Virus record (IMG/VR): IMGVR_UViG_3300020419_000004
Length of the DNA: 64,000 nucleotides
Strand: one strand, 5' to 3'
Source: a virus
Shown here one piece after another: positions 36,901-44,475 of this stretch (position 1 is the first letter of the stretch; each line of letters opens with the position of its first letter). Below the pieces are notes generated by a model that was given only the letters and a program-made list of their open reading frames with translations, ran no database searches and was not told the DNA's origin. Both the position numbers and the translations under genes were made by a program.

Positions 36901-37597
36901 TGCAGCGTTAGCAATTTACTCTGCAACTGGTAGAGTATTCATTAACAAAGGATCTGGTGTAAGCACTGGTAGTGGATCACAACTAATGGTTGGTGGTTCA
37001 GTTGAAGCTAGCAGTCAACTTAAATCTACTGTTGCAACTGGTACTGCACCAATCAGTGTTTCATCAACAACTGTATGTACTAACCTTAACGCAGATCTAC
37101 TCGATGGTTATACTGCACTTAACCTTCCATACTTGGGTGCTAGTGTTAACACATGGTTGAATGATGATGGTGGACAACCAAGATTCTACTTTGGTAATAA
37201 CTCTCACACATACTTTAGAACAGGTGACAACTACTACTGGAGATCTGACAATGATACCAGTATGGGTTCATGTGATGGTAACGGTGGTACATGGACATTC
37301 TACTCAGGTAGTGACCAAACACAGACATCTTACAGGGTAGAAGTCAGAGGACAGAACGGATTAAACATCGACAGTGACTCTGTTGGTTTATCAAGTGGTC
37401 AAAGATCTGTTGTACTTCGTGCTAACGGAGACAAGCAGTGGATCGACACATACGGTATTATTAAGAGAAACCGTAATAACATTTCGGAAAACATATCTAT
37501 TAACAATGGGGACAACTGTCAAAGCATTGGTCCTATTACTATAAATAATGGATATACCATTACTATAAATAGCGGTGGATACTGGAGTATCAATTAA
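24989..37597 (+). CDS. Giant modular tail-fibre-like structural protein
   Basis: 4202 aa; interrupted beta-helix-like region, helical repeats, YPR-domain array, repeated (L)DADxLDG shaft motifs, and a C-terminal GPITINNGYTITINSGGYWSI fibre-end motif. Confidence 0.8.
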   Translation: MALKINSDQQRISASGNTPTGNWINATYSRTVTGMVNILSVAHGFIGSDKLYIDFTSGGETDGTYTVTKVDDDNLQYQSTNLGVITAGNTLAYKRVRSLSIQGDETIEMSVGTGANEKDALTVNLNAQNNIRIGVNTTDPLYELDVEGQIRTTRSIISDTAQVVNLDIQTIINPALDLRGPNLINYEDTDVTSPTFGTTFYPTADTPPLTDQSRRLATTDFVYKVATNDTGGRVYVSATIGNDENDGRSAARPVKTVKKAAQIAYTLQKATPDPSDEYVSLIVSGGEYLEDNPISLPRNCSLIGDNLRRVVMRPANQDRHMVKASNETYVFGVVFRDALQNPSDPQSTVIHTWKYAFVFDDKQRLYYEPELQQIPAIPGDKFRGDNLFNITFNNHTGNNTTLVVGYFVQGGSSGTLGTIQSITFTGPDASPYSTGSITILITSGVNDVFQDAEKVFYDAVAANIITDINNASVSNRFDVADAESLRPELETISNQIYQHTVNSERFFEAFSGDATKVNLTTDRITVPNHYFETGSAVYYQKDEATVLAGLADTTVYYVRVIDSNTIELYDNYTNSVATTTTTGRKDITSVSTDTKLHLFTCGNVMPESNNIRIPTHQYATGDGVVYRSGAMGGIDGLVSGTSYYVYRENKDWIRLASSAANAVQKDAQGNDDPVTLPINSTGTGYQRFELAANLLSVGTIDTTIATQQTYRGPILTLAGTEYHDYEVGQEVHLYGFQSSAINFGSSTNTSWSLSSGVVTVTISSVDNTLTSGHFSNWMTLTECGLTFNFSGTGSEALSKTYHIDQFDLGSGTPSLPGNTALGMGYARYNSSSTTITFVLKTANIQSTSNTATATGSTVSVLDNVADLNGRKYITHRIERADGYSLQFVIRAAISVFSASLNPTGNQTVISSSNYVLASLRNSPYGFTKISQTDRYRDGAESIKRNQEFIAEEAYGYVKSHYEQSGTRSSTLVIGPTTFNALGDTFTHPISEWTLTYNYLKVKVNTGHNLSKGFRNHNHIYNGGTASNAITITQGSVQKDVTDATYNPVTGDLVLTIGAHAYTTANTLVIANGAISFTCSRDNHATSHTYPRATDPAYGATLPITAVDAAGTVTVNVGVSAGVTISGSSTAGINGTWAISDVYDHREFTLDIGENTISTGTTGTDGSFNDIRKPYRTPNTFPVSNKQGDGADLIANNAELIAEVAVKKMLAANAGYTPTGGTSACTDDLKDFLQKSLYHNLKWGGNDRVYDAANYYIHYVSTGNKDRYAEAFNYAKEYCMKVIRNLPILRHPHTLAPQYYDTSITLDRAVYGTVPNLTQDAANLLNANNKFISEESVERFISKLTDVAVDAVNGNEITINALNGTTPTNTNPHTFQGVATYQFTPTGGSYDPLTGYMTLTMNGHPFVDGDKVQFAANSIKFTCDLDGDASIKSYPRTTDPWYNKWIGVQKVDANNIKVNVGPAKTDVTNHTWSSATTNAVSRAVVYNDTGFTQHTVTGANYEPITGILTLTIPNHGFTIGEKVQVAQDSLTFTCSMDDNFSKHTYPRATDPALNVWKSVTNVTQNTFDINVGTTPPVTFTPTNATYTPTTGLMELTIGNHTLEAPTSHTVTDASLDTSTGIFTVTINNHGFQEGDKINVAQGSIQMSCGYSGGGNESYPKAGQYADGKWLNIWGVTQNTFSFDCTGGVAVSVSDAHTFVSATTLGLKHVKEHIKLTTGAVTFKCAADGNSTDHAYPRSIVDSHTATTGTTYDPNTGIMKITTTAAHGMRNGDWVKLSEGSISFSCGYNGATGSAAIKAYPRSSDPIYNQWQKVFNVTSSTFDLQVLDSIPSTNTDTHTFVSATSNGIQQKRDKTYNTSVPIVAISGTSITIDVGISSNTTAHVYQSALNNSVITGGNYSHTFISATTNGIKRATASTINNYVPSSGTYNPTTGALVLNIGANDLSAPQTYTSTNGVYNPTTGIMTVTVANHGFQPGDKVKFAVGAISFSCTYGSGGTTAYPRSSDPIAEKWVNCFNITTNTFDVQTLDTTPSTNTNPHTYVSSAANGISHAKSTIKIAVEALELSCTYGDQSTKKYPRATDPIANPRFTIPNHNQDCKDDVSDVLRAVAYNLTNGGNDAVYDHAGYFVGTPHVDGEEFQARAVMELASDISQEVLANETVNIKGWHGVDQTKDLTITVEPGGCASVKSTCDTLFSIVEQAIVTDSLAHATDTAASTPTCADVASSVTTFFDIITTVIGTEAGGYGSLPTTRTVSVGDQQCIDDILHVVRAFQYDLRYTGNSKIVEAANKYISSGAIVHITEEIDYTRAIYAYAKELCIKAIRNDLEAGFFSLIAPISNGSITVDSAKPECANVVSALTTNWGILDNVLSSGTAYSGTTTVPDPLIQEQDAAKYSFPLLNIFLDLPVIEASPYIQNSSLISFLGGSGCDIDGAKVATPNVPRPGLKLDGLGNSIAQFDPQGKSMVANAFTIICFGGTAYNVSNDGYTQLVSVFAIFCQDGIFCQSGGYASVTNSASNFGTYSLRATGFRAEPYSFDIGVIDSITNDADGNGVENGRQVIQVSGTTLTNIPVEDYIIRIGDTNPTDPAVEHIILETEVVSGAPGTQVVAKITTNRSMDYTLTASPNTRYDYASGNLSGLVGKSIQFHRPSVCNSSSHTWEFSGSGNTYAALPQNGGFGLGTAYEASEQAFGQVYTSGTNEFGDFKVGNFVTIFNRTGNISFVGTVSISELSSIKIVGGDITVTGFSDADTLGGVFASDSLLPTQASVKDYISNNLGPYLNQPYSTNAVPSALVQLTSSGKINIDQIPALRPFNITSVTSEAERLAIENAQAGDIAIQTTATSFSVAPASINTGADTITIASHGANTGDGLTYTQGTTAIGGLSTNTKYFAIKVDDNTIKLATTKSNATNNQIITLSGQGTGTHTFTTDGVAVSYILENDLESQFLAFQPDSNFSFSVGAIVQGSTTTARGTVSAFNDGQIFNFVISDGGGDYTGDFALTIAAPDDAGGTQAAATANVTSGIVTKVTITNAGSGYYTQPTVTAPNSPSNNNAVIAAQIEGRVAINIANNIKFDASDFLLDGANANLGTGTYSQTGSTITVSESGHNLANGALAYLDFTSGQGADGFYAITLVNANEFTVTSATSTSTTGNVSRKRIIDLTRVINTSGSNIANWTQLTSTNIDASNIVAGTVDPERLANKGISNSFTFLRGDSSWEYALQSIRPSTQDAVVIGGSVTDSSYIDTITITNGGTGYTNGTYQNLPLQGGNVSISDAGVARATYIVSGGVITSAQVTDSGTGYTAGFSVTIPSEFGGGNGAILAANKGTINRAFGNIEIDIKKGDNLTPAASVYGNYGVFRFRKDIANQAIGNQDQGGFIIDNDGQVSIDQGPGSGLNADLLDGNGGGFYTNASNLTQGTLAAARLANTTYAISISGTADKANRIFNESASLTSNPAPAQASDGVGAALRNNTATGLNDGGTTHGIMTYRRQATGTATTQLGFTDNNNLWVRGNSGGNAVYGNWYKMWSGLNDGAGSGLDADKLDSHQGLWYQSGYNFGASQGGINKPMGDIFLPEVLGEDKMVFENFYLNDSGLKYTLYVPDFHVSTGTGGNVNNGGTYTIYSDVGATNNIGSIVVDGAGVQELTHTSGEIYSLITGTIAFVGNNTNANIYVVGPNPGTKWTVTSSNLISSGSSTVIGMRDAAAGAKLQVGKASVSTTPTVDFRSSGQAPEYDVQFLISGGNTNNGNGTIRINTGDITVNGNTMWHAGNDGSSSQLDAHYVDGFTQSTSANANTLARRDASGHLTVNDLTGDQGIFQNTGASILQLADGNGVNLGKATTNALSIQGRNSASVGYIRFGNDSNSFGYNGTYLNYNNVTFRSGRVGIGDTNPGSPLEIVAEGNASSATAFADFRDGRSGYGRITFGADGSSSFMTFTDTDNDMGWQLGADDNDQSWFAIRNFADASGALSTSFQSNAKVNAALAIYSATGRVFINKGSGVSTGSGSQLMVGGSVEASSQLKSTVATGTAPISVSSTTVCTNLNADLLDGYTALNLPYLGASVNTWLNDDGGQPRFYFGNNSHTYFRTGDNYYWRSDNDTSMGSCDGNGGTWTFYSGSDQTQTSYRVEVRGQNGLNIDSDSVGLSSGQRSVVLRANGDKQWIDTYGIIKRNRNNISENISINNGDNCQSIGPITINNGYTITINSGGYWSIN
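29015..31240 (+). repeat. Nested YPRxxDP/HTF domain array in the 4202-aa protein
   Basis: Seven YPR/YPK motifs here plus one more copy at 28031-28339; same domain as in gp7. Confidence 0.9.
37540..37571 (+). promoter_or_regulatory. Two TATAAATA late promoters (37540-37547, 37564-37571) embedded in the 3' end of the 4202-aa gene
   Basis: Two exact consensus matches 24 nt apart, 62 and 38 nt before ATG 37610. Confidence 0.6.
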
Positions 37598-38739: not shown

Positions 38740-40110
38740 ATGTCTCAGTTAAATTCTGGAACCGCACAAGTAAATACTCTAACTACTTCGGGGAGCACAA
38801 TCTCTATCCCGAAGAATATTAGTGTCACTGGTGATATAAACTTCACTGGTACTTTGTTGCAGAACGGAGTTGCTTTTGAAACACTACCCACTCAAAGTCC
38901 TAAGACTGCGGGTGGTATTTTAATGTCTGATGGTGAGAATGCTTTCTGGGGAACCACTCTTGCTGCGGAAGGCGATGTAGGTGGTAACAATAACTTTGGT
39001 TACTACAACTCATCTCCCTCTACAACAACTGGTGCAGGTGGACAGAACCCTACAGTTTCTTCAGGTGATTACCTTCCTTACTCAGGAACAGGTAGTTGGT
39101 ATGACTACAACGGTTCGCAGTATAATATAACAGTCGGTTCAAGTTTTAGATATAGAAGTATATTCACACACTCGTTCTTAGTTGGTGGTTACAGAGGATC
39201 AAACCCATGGAGATCAGTTAACCAATGCTACAACGCAACAGATATTACAATCTCTCGTGGTGACCAGTTAGACCGAGCAGCATCATATGTTGACGGAAAC
39301 TTTGGTGACTTCAACGGATATGTCTATGGTACTGTAAACTCCTACGGTGGTAGTGGTGCTTCAGTATCTAGTGTCAACCTACACACAGGAACTAACAGAA
39401 CATTCGGTCCTAACGGAACACCTGGCCACAGTGATGCATACAACACTACTCCAGATAGTATCGGTGCTTCAATGGATACTTGGGATGGTACTGATGACCC
39501 AGGTTCTGCATCAGGACAAACAACACAGAGAGGATACACCTCAGGTGGTGGTCCTGGATCTATTCAGAGAATGAACTTTATCACTGAGATGTGTACTCGT
39601 CTTGGTAATGGTTTCAGTAACTCAGGTGCTACTGGATCCGAAGGACAGTATAGATGCCATCTATTTGGTGACACAGGTAACTCAAGATATGTAGAATTTA
39701 GTAACGAGTCCGTTAACTCATACTCCTTAAGTGGATGGGGTGGTAACGGATGGAAGAAGAACTTGTCAACTAAGTGGGGTTTCTGCTATCATGGTAACAG
39801 TAACAATGTTACACTACCATGGCTCAAATTTAACGATACCAATAATACATCTATTGGTGGTGCATTTAACCAAGCAGATATTTCATCTGGTGAAGAGAAT
39901 ATGGCAATGGGTCAAGATTGGGGTTATTGTTTAGGTAACTATGCTTCTGGTACAGGTAACTATCAGAACAATAGAACATGGAAACGTTACCATGCAACTG
40001 ATGCTGATGTAGTATTAGGATTTAAAGCAGAACCTAAGGGTCACCAAGGACAGTCCTCTGGATGTTGTTTCACTGGTGCGTTCTCAGTAACAGGATTGAG
40101 GTATCAGTAA
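38740..40110 (+). CDS. Putative receptor-binding protein with Kelch-like beta-propeller
   Basis: 456 aa; N-terminal fibre-like VTGDINFTGTLLQNG, then recurring Gly/aromatic blades (FLVGGY, GYVYG, GYTSGG, GYCLGNY). Confidence 0.55.
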   Translation: MSQLNSGTAQVNTLTTSGSTISIPKNISVTGDINFTGTLLQNGVAFETLPTQSPKTAGGILMSDGENAFWGTTLAAEGDVGGNNNFGYYNSSPSTTTGAGGQNPTVSSGDYLPYSGTGSWYDYNGSQYNITVGSSFRYRSIFTHSFLVGGYRGSNPWRSVNQCYNATDITISRGDQLDRAASYVDGNFGDFNGYVYGTVNSYGGSGASVSSVNLHTGTNRTFGPNGTPGHSDAYNTTPDSIGASMDTWDGTDDPGSASGQTTQRGYTSGGGPGSIQRMNFITEMCTRLGNGFSNSGATGSEGQYRCHLFGDTGNSRYVEFSNESVNSYSLSGWGGNGWKKNLSTKWGFCYHGNSNNVTLPWLKFNDTNNTSIGGAFNQADISSGEENMAMGQDWGYCLGNYASGTGNYQNNRTWKRYHATDADVVLGFKAEPKGHQGQSSGCCFTGAFSVTGLRYQ

Positions 40111-40265
40111 TGAGCGAACAAAACACAGGAGATGCAAGAAAGATGTTTTTTAACACAGACCTTGCATCAAAGATAAAGCAAGATCAACAGGATGTAACTA
40201 TTGAAAACCTTAAGGCAGAAATCACTGCCATGAAGAATAGGATTACTGCTCTAGAAAATGCCTGA
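40110..40265 (+). CDS. 51-aa coiled-coil protein (start revised to ATG 40110)
   Basis: TAATG coupling with the upstream stop; MSEQNTG...IENLKAEITAMKNRITALENA. Confidence 0.7.
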   Translation: MSEQNTGDARKMFFNTDLASKIKQDQQDVTIENLKAEITAMKNRITALENA

Positions 40266-41193
40266 TAACAAACTCTACATAGAAGAAAAACTTTTTGATG
40301 TTGAATGGAAGAAAAGAATTCCATCCGATCTTATTGAGGATGAGGATTTCCTACGTCCAAAATACGAACCGCAGCATCCACTAGAACTTGAGACTAAGAA
40401 GTTTATAAAAGATAAAGAACGTATCAAGGAAGGTTTCATCTATATGATGATCCACGAAGATGCTCTTAGAACTGCTGGTATCAAACCACACGAGACATCA
40501 TACTTTACGTTGTTCAATTTTTATAACGTCTCAACCATCAAGATGAACAAACTTGTGTTCGAGACTGTAAAGTCTACCTTCAGAAGGTACGTTGAACTTG
40601 ATGAAAAAGAATTCACTACTGGAGTTAAGTTCCAAGGTGAGATACGCTCACACTTCAAAGACTATGAAGCTGTGATGCAAGATGATGGATCCTTAGACTA
40701 TGAGAAGGTAAAGAAAAAGACTGTACCTGAACATATAAATCTTGCTGTACAGTTCATGAAGAAGCAAGCAATCTTAGTTATTGAACATGAGTTTGATCTT
40801 AGGTTCAAGAACTTTAAGAACTGCTGTGACGTAGAGTCTGAGAGTTGGGTATACCAACTTGAAGAAGCAAGAAAATACAAGGAGAGTGAGGAAGCTAAAA
40901 CTCCTTTCCTAGATATATTATGCATGACAAGAGGTATGCAGAAGGCAGAACTTGTAAAAAGGGTTCTCAAAAACCATGATAAATACCTTATAGATTACGC
41001 CTCATTATTAGGCAAATATCATGCGATACGTTCCCAGTTTAGAAACTGTGAAAATATGTGGGATATGAACATCTTGTACGAAGACTACTTGAATGTTGGT
41101 ATGCCAATCAAGCAAGGTCAGAAACTTGGCCGAATTGATGAAAATGAAAAGCGACTTGATGGAGATTTAGCATATGGCACTTTCGGATTCTGA
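40258..41193 (+). CDS. Putative tail-fibre assembly chaperone-like protein
   Basis: 311 aa; C-terminal half ESW..Q..EA......TPFL..L...RG.....LV..V......Y......LLGK resembles fibre-assembly proteins of other tailed phages (recalled pattern, not searched). Confidence 0.55.
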   Translation: MPDNKLYIEEKLFDVEWKKRIPSDLIEDEDFLRPKYEPQHPLELETKKFIKDKERIKEGFIYMMIHEDALRTAGIKPHETSYFTLFNFYNVSTIKMNKLVFETVKSTFRRYVELDEKEFTTGVKFQGEIRSHFKDYEAVMQDDGSLDYEKVKKKTVPEHINLAVQFMKKQAILVIEHEFDLRFKNFKNCCDVESESWVYQLEEARKYKESEEAKTPFLDILCMTRGMQKAELVKRVLKNHDKYLIDYASLLGKYHAIRSQFRNCENMWDMNILYEDYLNVGMPIKQGQKLGRIDENEKRLDGDLAYGTFGF

Positions 41194-41974
41194 TGCACTC
41201 TGTAGGCAAAACCTAGAAGGAAATAAAAAGACTTGGGTTGAAGCTGCTTACAAATTAGAAGGCGGTCAGTCGAAATACCAAAACCAGAATTTTGTAGTTG
41301 GTTCACAAATAACACCATATAAGAAAGTGCAGCAAGCACTTCTCGAACTCCAGACGAGGGATAATACTCGTGTGGAAGTGGAGTATAGTCTTAAGAAAAA
41401 CGAGATCAATAGACGGATGTTGTTGAGAGACTTGAATGCAACTGAAGATGACCTTGAACAAGAACTGATACAACTAGAAATAGATAAGTCAGATTATGAC
41501 AGATCTCTATTCGTAGAGAAACTAAAGACAGTCAACAAAGAAATGGATGTCTTTATAGCAGAACTTGAAGAGAATGTAGATAGATCAAAAGGTATAGAGT
41601 ACTATCTTGTTACCAATGAGGAAGAAGATAGGAAGTACTGGCAGAGTAGAATGGCAAAACAGGCTGCATGTGATATAATTGCATTTGGTCGTCTTGGTGC
41701 AGGTAACATGGATTCAATTATGAATCTACCTGAGCAAGATCAAGTCAACATCCTATCTGGTGCAGTACATCATTCTGCACTGATAGGTGCAGGTGTCCAA
41801 CACATGACACAGCAAATGGAGGGTACCTGCAATGGTCTCCTCAATGGTGATAAGTTCTCACCACCACAAATTAATGGTTCGGAATTAACTGACCGCCTCC
41901 CAGAGGTGCCCACATTACCTGAAGTGAAACATGAAATCCCCAAAGAGAAAATCCGTCTTCAGTCTTCCAATTAA
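41174..41974 (+). CDS. Hypothetical helical/coiled-coil protein
   Basis: 266 aa; GGAG RBS; SKYQNQNFVV...TPYKKVQQALLEL and YWQSRMAKQA...GNMDSI motifs. Confidence 0.75.
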   Translation: MALSDSDALCRQNLEGNKKTWVEAAYKLEGGQSKYQNQNFVVGSQITPYKKVQQALLELQTRDNTRVEVEYSLKKNEINRRMLLRDLNATEDDLEQELIQLEIDKSDYDRSLFVEKLKTVNKEMDVFIAELEENVDRSKGIEYYLVTNEEEDRKYWQSRMAKQAACDIIAFGRLGAGNMDSIMNLPEQDQVNILSGAVHHSALIGAGVQHMTQQMEGTCNGLLNGDKFSPPQINGSELTDRLPEVPTLPEVKHEIPKEKIRLQSSN

Positions 41975-43694
41975 TCCTAAGATTGATTCCAAGTATGCAG
42001 ACACGGTTTTTGTACCTTGGTTGAAGACATATAAAGATTATATTAGCGACTTATATTTTACCTGTCGTATGCCACCATTCACCCAAGACTCAATGGGTGA
42101 TGTATTTCAAGGTGATGTAAGGCAATTGTATTATAATGCGAAAGCAATATCAGAAGATGCTGGTGACATACCACTGTCTGCTACATTCAATAACATATAC
42201 ATTAGACCAGACCTAGAAAATCTAGACCTGTTCGTAAAGAACTTTGGTCAGTTGTATGATCAAGGTATCAAGATTGCAACCATACCACACACCAGTTGGG
42301 TTAGCACTGGTATATTACAGAAAGAATTTCCAGAACTAAAGATCAAGAATACTATACTTAGGAATGTCACAAAGGCAAATGAAGTAGTAGCTCTTGCTAA
42401 GGCAGGTTTTCATTACATCAATCTAGATAGAGATTTGATGAGAGATAAGGAAGCGTTGAAGAAGATAAAGAAAGCAAAGGAATATTGTGCTGAGATAGGT
42501 AAACCTGTAGAGTTATCCATTCTAACTAACGAGGGTTGTTGGGGTGGTTGCTCTATGATGGATGAGCATTACCATTTTAATAATACAAGGACAGAGATGA
42601 CCCCTCAGTATTTTAATGATCCTATCAGTACCCACTCTTGTTCACTATGGGATATAGAAGATAACTCTCATGCTCTAAAGTCAGCTAACCTACCTCCTTG
42701 GAGAGAGGATTGGGAAGAGTTCTTAGACCTAGGTATAGATGTATTCAAGATGCATGGTAGAGAAAATGCCATGAAACTAATGGAATCTATGCAAATGATA
42801 GAAGCATGGGCATCTGAAAATGAATTGGTAACAGGTGAATTTAAGGAGTACATGGAAGATCTTGCAGTACCAGATAGTCCTATTGCTCTATGGAGAGAAA
42901 AGATAAAGACATGTGGTTTTGACTGTTGGGATTGTAACTATTGTGAGAACGTTGTCAATGCACACCTCAAGAAACAAGGTAGACCAACTACAGTTGATGA
43001 TTATACTCAGAGAGTATTGGATGCTATAATCGCTGGCAATACCAACACATCTAATTTTGTACCAGACAAATATAGTATTCAAGGACTGTCCTCCAATAGG
43101 ATAAGACATTTCCTTAATAGTCTTTGTTCTCATGATGATGCAGTCTATCTTGAACTTGGTACCTTCATTGGTAGTACGTTCTTTGCTGCTACCATGGGTA
43201 ATAAAGCAAAGTGTTTTGGTGTAGATGACTTCTCAGAACCCAATGTTAAACCTATAGTTGATCGTGGTCAGTGGACTGAGTGTGGTAATCCATACGATAC
43301 CTTAGTTACTAACTGGAAAAAGTATGAGAATGGTAATGCTACATTTGTTAAAGCAAGTGTGGACGAACTAACTGAAGAAGACTTTGAAGGTAGTAAACCC
43401 AACATCTTGTTTTATGACGCAGATCATGATATGATGCAACAGATGAACAATCTTAATCATCTGCTACCCTTCATGGATGACAAGTTCATACTTGTTGTTG
43501 ACGATGCCAACTTTGATGGTGTTGTAGAGGGAGCAGTAACATGGGCTCAAGAGAACAACTTACAGTGTTACCTTGAAAGAAAGATCCTAAGTAGTGTCAT
43601 AGAAAGTCCAGTCCACTGGTGGAATGGAATTCATGTTATGGTTTTACAAAAGGACGCAAGAGTAAAAGAATACATTAGTGGGAACGGATTATGA
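41931..43694 (+). CDS. U32-family (Fe-S hydroxylase-like) domain fused to a class I SAM methyltransferase
   Basis: 587 aa; SDLYF, INLDRDLMR, LTNEGCWGGC, GIDVFKMHGRE and Cx3Cx2Cx2C (42912-42944), then YLELGTFIGST, ILFYDADH and ILVVDDAN. Confidence 0.75.
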   Translation: MKSPKRKSVFSLPINPKIDSKYADTVFVPWLKTYKDYISDLYFTCRMPPFTQDSMGDVFQGDVRQLYYNAKAISEDAGDIPLSATFNNIYIRPDLENLDLFVKNFGQLYDQGIKIATIPHTSWVSTGILQKEFPELKIKNTILRNVTKANEVVALAKAGFHYINLDRDLMRDKEALKKIKKAKEYCAEIGKPVELSILTNEGCWGGCSMMDEHYHFNNTRTEMTPQYFNDPISTHSCSLWDIEDNSHALKSANLPPWREDWEEFLDLGIDVFKMHGRENAMKLMESMQMIEAWASENELVTGEFKEYMEDLAVPDSPIALWREKIKTCGFDCWDCNYCENVVNAHLKKQGRPTTVDDYTQRVLDAIIAGNTNTSNFVPDKYSIQGLSSNRIRHFLNSLCSHDDAVYLELGTFIGSTFFAATMGNKAKCFGVDDFSEPNVKPIVDRGQWTECGNPYDTLVTNWKKYENGNATFVKASVDELTEEDFEGSKPNILFYDADHDMMQQMNNLNHLLPFMDDKFILVVDDANFDGVVEGAVTWAQENNLQCYLERKILSSVIESPVHWWNGIHVMVLQKDARVKEYISGNGL

Positions 43695-43768
43695 GTGCAT
43701 GGTATGTTATAGGTTGGACTATAGTTACACTATGGTTACTGACTAAGTTAGGTGTATTTAAAAAATGA
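43691..43768 (+). CDS. 25-aa hydrophobic micro-protein (not in ORF track)
   Basis: MSAWYVIGWTIVTLWLLTKLGVFKK; exactly fills the gap with ATGA overlaps to both neighbours. Confidence 0.7.
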   Translation: MSAWYVIGWTIVTLWLLTKLGVFKK

Positions 43769-44475
43769 AGGTAATAAATCCTGAGTTATTGCAAACTCAT
43801 CACCCTAAGGACTGGGAGATAGAGCAATTACATATTGGCAATGCAAAGAATAGGATCATTAAGATCAAAAATTTCTTTCAGAACCCAGAACAGGTAAGAG
43901 CATATGCACTAGCAACTGATTATGTTAATACAGTTGGTGGTCAATTTTCTAATCTACCTGGTTATGTGTGCAAGTTAGGACACATAGCAAATCAGTTCTA
44001 CCCTAACTTCAAGTTCTTATTGGCAACTTACTTTGAAGCTGATAAGAAGATCATGCTTCAACCAGAGTTCTCCCACTTTACATTTCAAATGTATGAGGTA
44101 CAGGAGAAATGTAGGATGTGTAGTCTAGCACCGCATACTGATGACACTCACTATGCTGCTGTTCTATCATTAAATTTCGATGAAGAGTTGATGGAGACTT
44201 CATCGGGCACTGCATTCTGGAGAAGTAAAGAGTTCAAAGAGGAGTATGTCTCCTCTGACAAGAACTATAGAACTTCTAGACTAGCTAACAAAGTCAATGC
44301 CTTTGTTAATTTTGACCCATCACAATACAAAACTAAAGACTGGGAGAGGTATCATGTTGAGAAGCATGAATTCAATTCTCTGCTAGTATATGAAGGAAGA
44401 CTATGGCATTCACCATACTTTCAACAAAGTGGATGGGATACAAACCGTCTAACCTTCAATGCATTTCTGCACTAA
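43765..44475 (+). CDS. 2OG-Fe(II) oxygenase-like protein (DUF6445-like)
   Basis: 236 aa; HxD (PHTD, 44134), distal His (WHSP, 44407) and the 2OG-binding-type Arg (NRLTF, 44446); N-terminal IKNFFQNPEQVR. Confidence 0.75.
   Translation: MKVINPELLQTHHPKDWEIEQLHIGNAKNRIIKIKNFFQNPEQVRAYALATDYVNTVGGQFSNLPGYVCKLGHIANQFYPNFKFLLATYFEADKKIMLQPEFSHFTFQMYEVQEKCRMCSLAPHTDDTHYAAVLSLNFDEELMETSSGTAFWRSKEFKEEYVSSDKNYRTSRLANKVNAFVNFDPSQYKTKDWERYHVEKHEFNSLLVYEGRLWHSPYFQQSGWDTNRLTFNAFLH

Follow-up and report, generated by a model that had tools for sequence, protein, structure and literature searches.

A U32-like barrel fused to an O-methyltransferase in a mobile cyanophage cassette: a candidate two-step tailoring enzyme

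Introduction

To our knowledge, U32 proteins have been tied to only three functions in cells, which concern ubiquinone, 5-hydroxyuridine (ho5U) in tRNA and 5-hydroxycytidine (ho5C) in rRNA, and none of them has been reconstituted in vitro. Here, we describe a viral gene whose product joins a U32-like barrel to a class I O-methyltransferase. The gene occupies positions 41931-43694 of a 64,000-nucleotide stretch of DNA (hereafter, the window) from the IMG/VR virus record IMGVR_UViG_3300020419_000004, and its open reading frame (ORF), open throughout, encodes 587 amino acids. A preliminary description, made from the DNA letters, had proposed an enzyme that hydroxylates and then O-methylates its substrate, by analogy with TrhP and TrmR.

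The characterized U32 proteins, UbiU/UbiV, TrhP (YegQ) and RlhA (YdcP), are iron-sulphur (Fe-S) proteins required for O2-independent hydroxylation (bioRxiv 10.1101/587956; PMC10990095). The canonical U32 motif reads CX6CX15CX3/4C, and that of UbiU CX6CX16CX38C (bioRxiv 10.1101/587956). In Bacillus subtilis, the yrrM-yrrN-yrrO operon pairs an O-methyltransferase with U32 proteins in the conversion of ho5U to 5-methoxyuridine (mo5U) in tRNA. The Mg ligands of the methyltransferase, TrmR (YrrM), are D133, D159 and N160 (PMC6158493). Among phage-borne enzymes that tailor aromatic rings, VirX1 (PDB 6qgm) is a cyanophage flavin-dependent halogenase whose natural substrate is not known. The gene studied here was catalogued as T4-GC354, a 'hypothetical protein' found in five of 16 cyanomyoviruses (Sullivan et al. 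2010).

Results

The N-terminal domain is predicted to be a distant U32-type barrel

The Cys, His and methyltransferase motifs listed in the preliminary description are all where it had placed them in the ORF, and structure and profile searches of each domain, which it had suggested, led the barrel to a U32 structure and the methyltransferase to COMT-like proteins and TrmR. When the full-length model was used in Foldseek, two-domain pyruvate kinases crowded the match list, and for this reason the N-domain was refolded alone. The AlphaFold2 model of residues 1-360 (predicted local distance difference test score, pLDDT, 93.4; predicted template modelling score, pTM, 0.92) has a complete eight-stranded triosephosphate isomerase (TIM) barrel followed by helices that bear the last four Cys. 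Its best Foldseek match, and thus the nearest solved TIM-barrel fold, was the U32 peptidase Mk0906 (5d88; E = 2.5e-6, template modelling (TM) score 0.72 by target), the single solved U32 structure, so at the level of fold the predicted domain falls within the U32 superfamily.

A hidden Markov model (HMM) of the family scored 21.8 bits against Escherichia coli TrhP and 13.5 bits against RlhA, and aligned 'VDVFKxxGR' with the 'KIEGR' motif of TrhP, RlhA and UbiU. Comparison with a four-sequence U32 profile by hhalign gave a probability of 74% (E = 2.9e-5). In the ESM Atlas, the nearest clusters were phage clusters labelled Peptidase U32; an Atlas cluster of 622-residue bacterial radical S-adenosylmethionine (SAM) proteins also matched the U32-like barrel (TM score 0.74 over 309 residues).

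Other searches returned little. A weak Pfam U32 match was seen in just two of 37 family members, no Pfam family was found in any of 10 distant relatives, and neither PDB sequence searches with the whole protein and the N-domain profile nor an NCBIfam search gave a match. A second U32-like paralogue beside the gene, in the manner of UbiU/UbiV, was found in none of the 14 loci examined. Judged by profile and predicted structure, the N-domain is a distant sister family inside the U32 superfamily, not a canonical member. The earlier assignment to a divergent U32 subfamily is supported by the fold, the KxxGR motif, the match to TrhP and the hhalign result; the Pfam threshold for U32 itself was missed.

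Seven Cys are invariant across the family

Conservation was read from alignments of 37, 70 and, at the widest, 60 homologues that are 22-45% identical. C203, C207, C237, C328, C332, C335 and C338 were invariant in the sets of 37 and 70 homologues, and in the widest set each of the seven was conserved at 90% or more. The same level of conservation was seen for E201, E212, H213, K273, G276 and R277. Because seven Cys are invariant among such distant homologues, the pattern lies far beyond chance.

C203-x3-C207-x5-H213 starts at 42537 and C237 is encoded at 42639; this first cluster falls in the loop after strand beta7, where canonical U32 proteins bind a 4Fe-4S cluster. Near the end of the barrel, K273, G276 and R277 supply a motif of the U32 KIEGR type, and the last four Cys make up a separate knuckle. 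As the preliminary description had noticed, the spacing departs from the canonical one: the family has C-x3-C-x29-C in the post-beta7 loop plus an extra CX3CX2CX2C knuckle. HMMER paired C203 with C177 of TrhP, whereas a relaxed hhalign alignment placed C203/C207 on TrhP C170/C177, with C237 next to C193/C197.

The C-terminal domain resembles metal-dependent O-methyltransferases

The C-terminal domain, already recognized as a class I methyltransferase, passed the gathering score of Pfam Methyltransf_24 (28.1 against 26.3 bits). Beyond this domain and the sub-threshold U32 match, no Pfam domain was detected in the protein, including the TrhP-type C-terminal domain. The motifs YLELGTFIGST (406-416), FYDADH (494-499) and VVDD (522-525) are present, and an acidic residue, D432, is invariant. 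With a profile of 19 fused and free-standing homologues, the sole significant PDB match was B. subtilis TrmR (5zw3, E = 5.9e-5), while the methyltransferase-type Foldseek neighbours of the full-length model were COMT-like O-methyltransferases.

Invariant D496, D524 and D525 align with TrmR D133, D159 and N160; in the phage domain the third position holds Asp, and an invariant N527 is nearby. TrmR is thus the closest-scoring solved relative, keeps the three Mg-ligand positions in common with the phage domain and is likewise paired genetically with a U32-type partner. The phage domain nevertheless belongs to Methyltransf_24 rather than Methyltransf_3, the methyltransferase domains of the family are uniformly acidic (median isoelectric point, pI, 4.7), and the position equivalent to K136, which contacts tRNA in TrmR (PMC6158493), varies across the family. 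The top methyltransferase-type structural neighbours, O-methyltransferases of the COMT type (COMT, CCoAOMT, LiOMT 2hnk and SynOMT 3cbg), share the Rossmann fold, SAM motif I and an Asp/Asp/Asn-type metal site; the likeness in sequence is weak (E = 0.26 for 3cbg), however, and the phage domain differs in its third metal position, with the Asn two residues further on, and in its fusion to a barrel. From its conserved residues, the C-domain has the catalytic equipment of a metal-dependent O-methyltransferase, and its substrate would therefore need a hydroxyl.

Barrel and methyltransferase are fused or adjacent in nearly all loci

Using free-standing N-domain homologues as query, we collected 80 IMG/VR loci. 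The two domains were fused in 20 of them, and in 57 the U32-like gene overlapped at its 3' end with a separate methyltransferase gene of ~220 codons. A contig edge cut off two loci and a single one was truly without a methyltransferase, so that the domains were fused or adjacent in 77 of 78 assessable loci, a pairing stronger than the preliminary description could know. Such a near-obligate O-methyltransferase partner leads us to expect that the barrel makes a hydroxyl-bearing product. In addition, a gene for a Methyltransf_2 O-methyltransferase follows two genes downstream of one bacterial homologue, which also lies beside a gene for a solute-binding protein.

The family is abundant in phages and rare in cells

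A near-length search returned 1,867 relatives, and the N-domain matched 277 clusters at 50% identity in a representative library. The closest isolates with the gene are the Synechococcus phages S-CAM4 and ACG-2014j (66% identity), followed by Syn19, S-RIM2, P-HM2 and others (47-53%). The N-domain occurs alone in three Ralstonia jumbo phages. Cellular homologues were rare (nine loci, including Victivallales, a deltaproteobacterial metagenome-assembled genome, Halarcobacter/Aliarcobacter and Bacillota) and had no cassette around them. Their neighbours were mixed (two-component systems, a DEAD helicase, a SecA-like protein) with no common operon. GT2, DegT and radical SAM genes are found close to further homologues. 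We noted that one groundwater deltaproteobacterial genome carries three U32-like paralogues on separate contigs (L010, L011 and L012).

The gene sits in a mobile cassette with an apparent late promoter

The features of the gene and its surroundings are collected in Table 1. The start at 41931, which gives a 44-nucleotide overlap with the preceding gene, is backed by conservation with S-CAM4 from residue 3 onward and by an N-terminal 'FSLP' motif common to the family. The window comes from a 129-kb record, estimated to be 71% complete, of a T4-like cyanomyovirus (a marine cyanophage) and represents its late structural region. Giant fibre-type ORFs of 2016, 2228, 2448, 4202 and 1833 amino acids are followed by neck proteins and gp15, and no tRNA gene was found in the 64 kb. 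The gap between the fusion gene and the DUF6445 gene is exactly spanned by an ORF of 25 codons (43691-43768, plus strand), with a high content of Trp and hydrophobic residues, whose ATGA-type overlaps at either end suggest translational coupling.

Table 1. Positions of the gene, its domains and motifs, and its neighbours in the window
Feature	Position	Strand	Basis or remark
Whole gene, U32-like barrel + O-methyltransferase fusion	41931..43694	+	T4-GC354 / phrog_1458
Eight-stranded TIM barrel with C-terminal helical Cys knuckle, U32-like, ~residues 1-345	41931..42965	+	
Cys cluster 1: C203, C207, E212, H213, C237, in loop after beta7	42537..42641	+	Alignment invariance
K273-x2-G276-R277 at strand beta8, matching U32 'KIEGR'	42747..42761	+	
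Cys cluster 2: C328-x3-C332-x2-C335-x2-C338, invariant; candidate second metal site (Fe-S or Zn)	42912..42944	+	
Class I cation-dependent O-methyltransferase domain, ~residues 385-575	43083..43655	+	Pfam, structure, TrmR match
SAM-binding motif I: Y406, E408, G410, G414, T416, all invariant	43146..43178	+	
Putative metal triad D496, D524, D525 (plus N527)	43416..43511	+	Alignment with TrmR Mg ligands
Two T4-type late-promoter motifs TATAAATA	37540..37571 (at 37540, 37564)	+	Immediately 5' of the gene run
GC351, 456 aa, Gly/Ser/Asn-rich, annotated 'sericin-like', phrog_1417	38740..40110	+	Fibre-tip-like cassette member
GC352, 311 aa, helical, phrog_1604	40258..41193	+	Cassette member
GC353, 266 aa, helical, phrog_1409	41174..41974	+	Stop overlaps start of the fusion gene
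DUF6445 protein	43765..44475	+	Directly downstream of the fusion gene

Between 24.4 and 62.4 kb, the only TATAAATA late-promoter motifs are the two upstream of this gene run, and the gene appears, from these motifs, to be transcribed late. Across the whole window there are five matches (6189, 24413, 37540, 37564 and 62386), all on the plus strand and each just 5' of a gene start; their total does not exceed chance expectation, while their placement is consistent with T4-type late promoters.

Of the 80 loci, 74 had a GC351 homologue, 68 a GC352 homologue and 77 a GC353 homologue, which makes GC353 the most constant neighbour of the U32-like gene. The commonest gene order was GC351 (one to four copies), GC353, GC352, radical SAM, U32-like and methyltransferase, and in the Ralstonia phage RP31 a GC353-like, the U32-like and a DUF401-like gene are directly consecutive. 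In the window, as in S-CAM4 and P-HM2, the GC351-354 unit is found within the fibre region, and in Syn19 it is found beside denV; occupying different genome positions, it therefore moves as a unit. Searches of the ESM Atlas, PDB and Pfam with GC351, GC352 and GC353 gave no lead, and a complex prediction for the N-domain with GC353 scored 0.00, which carries no weight either way on binding. GC351 proteins, encoded by one to four tandem paralogues, have a variable N-terminus and a conserved C-terminal domain of ~330 residues, in which numerous Gly, Tyr and Trp are invariant and a Cys close to the C-terminus is conserved.

Further enzymes varied by locus. In 57 of the 80 loci (e.g. L015, 6990-7997; L049, 5010-6005), a radical SAM gene of ~335 codons immediately preceded the free-standing U32-like gene; it was present in 55 of the 57 split loci and in none of the 20 fused ones, and an attempt to assign it to a subfamily gave no assignment. 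Downstream, a DUF401/CitMHS-like membrane protein was encoded in 51 of the 80 loci (e.g. L076, 8572-9600; ORF135 of the jumbo phage RP31, L004, 7016-8056), a 311-residue protein weakly like Phenol_MetA_deg in 45, and 2-oxoglutarate (2OG)-Fe(II) oxygenases were also found. A phage-encoded membrane protein of the DUF401/CitMHS type is unusual for a virion-gene region. In eight of the 20 fused loci (L082, 7676-9199; L077, L078, L080, L086, L087, L089 and L092), a Trp-halogenase homologue (PF04820, E = 1e-92) related to VirX1 and other solved halogenases abutted or overlapped the end of the fused gene. Some of these loci have a second Trp-halogenase copy a few kb further on, and such homologues are found widely among cyanomyoviruses, with further examples in Pelagibacter and Campylobacter phages. 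VirX1 is likewise a phage-borne tailoring enzyme of aromatic rings, of unrelated fold and chemistry.

Discussion

The phage protein resembles the U32 Fe-S proteins in its post-beta7 Cys cluster, in KxxGR at beta8 and in its profile match; it differs in falling below PF01136, in its own Cys pattern, in its link to a methyltransferase and in belonging to a mainly phage family with rare cellular members. Resting on the fold, the conserved residues, the pairing and the precedent of yrrM-yrrN-yrrO, hydroxylation followed by O-methylation is our best reading, as yet unproven. That the gene, apparently late-transcribed within a mobile cassette, encodes a two-step tailoring enzyme of this kind we rate as close to an even chance. 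Most likely, the N-domain would be a strongly diverged U32 TIM barrel whose seven Cys hold one or two metal centres: an Fe-S cluster after beta7, with C203, C207, C237 and either H213 or one C-terminal Cys as possible ligands, and perhaps, within the CX3CX2CX2C knuckle, an Fe-S or Zn site. Acting like UbiU/UbiV, TrhP and RlhA, the barrel would introduce a hydroxyl at an sp2 carbon, aromatic or heteroaromatic, with no need for O2, and the fused Mg-dependent domain of TrmR/COMT type would methylate the new hydroxyl with SAM to yield a methoxy group. The gene would act within the mobile cassette, together with the fibre-tip-like GC351 and the helical GC352 and GC353 proteins. The pair within its cassette suggests that some target is given a methoxy group by a pathway not yet described.

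Several observations weigh against this reading. The canonical four-Cys U32 motif is absent from the family, the two alignment methods disagree on the canonical equivalent of C203, and the Pfam U32 model (PF01136) scored only 12.0 bits with the whole protein and 13.5 bits with the N-domain, below its threshold of 22.4 bits. Direct hydroxylation by TrhP and RlhA themselves still awaits demonstration in vitro (PMC10990095), which is why hydroxylation by the phage barrel is something that we infer. The closest solved relative of the methyltransferase domain, TrmR, is a tRNA enzyme. GC351 is taken to be a fibre protein from its composition, position and annotations. No radical SAM, halogenase (hence no VirX1 homologue) or DUF401 gene was found in the window's phage record, which is incomplete and was searched with no positive control. 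Finally, accessory genes with no relation to one another are known to accumulate in the tail-fibre region of such phages (PMC7029224).

Might the barrel do something other than hydroxylate? It could perform other metal, radical or redox chemistry through its CX3CX2C, act as a peptidase, or help to assemble Gly-rich fibres, with the methyltransferase working independently. The U32 family was first named for a collagenase-like activity, the spacing at residues 328-335 is that of the radical SAM motif, the radical SAM cluster in the ESM Atlas matches the barrel, and both the canonical Cys motif and the Pfam threshold failed. Nevertheless, the protein has no Pfam Radical_SAM (PF04055) match, and its Cys knuckle comes after the full barrel, whereas radical SAM enzymes carry theirs after beta1. 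Most related cassettes already contain a separate radical SAM gene, characterized U32 proteins are Fe-S proteins needed for hydroxylation, and the near-obligate metal-dependent O-methyltransferase calls for a hydroxyl-bearing product. We therefore consider a barrel without hydroxylase function improbable.

As to the target of a hydroxylating and O-methylating enzyme, a phage version of TrhP and TrmR in one chain would convert the wobble U34 of host or phage tRNAs to 5-methoxyuridine and so tune late decoding. TrmR, the ho5U methyltransferase, is the sole significant PDB match of the methyltransferase profile and its Mg-ligand positions are kept, TrhP has the best family-HMM score among the E. 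coli U32 proteins, and the B. subtilis operon pairs exactly these two enzyme types. The analogy drawn in the preliminary description is weakened, however, because the constant company of the gene is GC351-353, members of the fibre-region cassette, joined in some loci by a radical SAM protein, halogenase, 2OG oxygenase or membrane protein, and because its promoter appears to be late, whereas the B. subtilis genes form a housekeeping operon. The extra C-terminal motif of TrhP and YrrO was not detected, the spacing of the canonical Cys motif, including the essential C170 and C177 of TrhP, is not kept, the K136 position is variable, the methyltransferase domains are acidic and the window has no tRNA genes. 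On balance, tRNA U34 is a poor candidate for the target, and the tRNA-modifying explanation as a whole is quite unlikely. Rather, the company of GC351-353 and ring-tailoring enzymes, the likely late timing, the acidic domains and the undetected TrhP C-terminal domain argue for a cassette-linked aromatic target, whether a GC351-type protein or a small molecule, over tRNA.

Between these two, we tentatively favour an aromatic residue of a GC351-type protein, and consider a small aromatic compound handled by the cassette the less probable target. In the latter case, the enzyme would tailor a free metabolite of indole, phenol or quinone type, taken up, exported or made by the cassette, and the link to fibres would be positional. 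The DUF401/CitMHS-like protein encoded in many loci, and directly after the U32-like gene in RP31, would fit this, as would the weakly Phenol_MetA_deg-like protein, the VirX1-related halogenases that abut the fused gene, the small catechols on which COMT-type methyltransferases usually act, and the bacterial homologue beside solute-binding protein and Methyltransf_2 genes, with other homologues near GT2, DegT and radical SAM genes. Yet no scaffold-building enzymes were seen in the cassettes, the incomplete phage record of the window has neither transporter nor halogenase gene, and GC351-353 stay with the enzyme pair when the unit relocates within genomes; free-metabolite tailoring is accordingly rather doubtful. 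A tail-fibre-linked protein-tailoring pathway would go further: the U32-type hydroxylase and the O-methyltransferase would decorate aromatic residues of GC351-type receptor-binding proteins and tune host recognition, with radical SAM, halogenase and 2OG oxygenase enzymes joining in relatives. In this complete form, we consider it unlikely.

Our literature search found no description of phage U32 proteins or of such fibre-linked tailoring. The gene belongs to an abundant phage family that Pfam misses and that carries a new seven-Cys signature. With the hard-wired O-methyltransferase setting the expected product, a methoxy group, the fusion is a compact, soluble candidate for assaying U32 chemistry. 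The steady link to fibre-region genes and ring-tailoring enzymes suggests that marine phages chemically tailor something tied to host recognition. If the protein-tailoring pathway is true, it would add proteins to RNA and quinones as targets of U32 chemistry, and would indicate the natural substrate class of VirX1-type viral halogenases.

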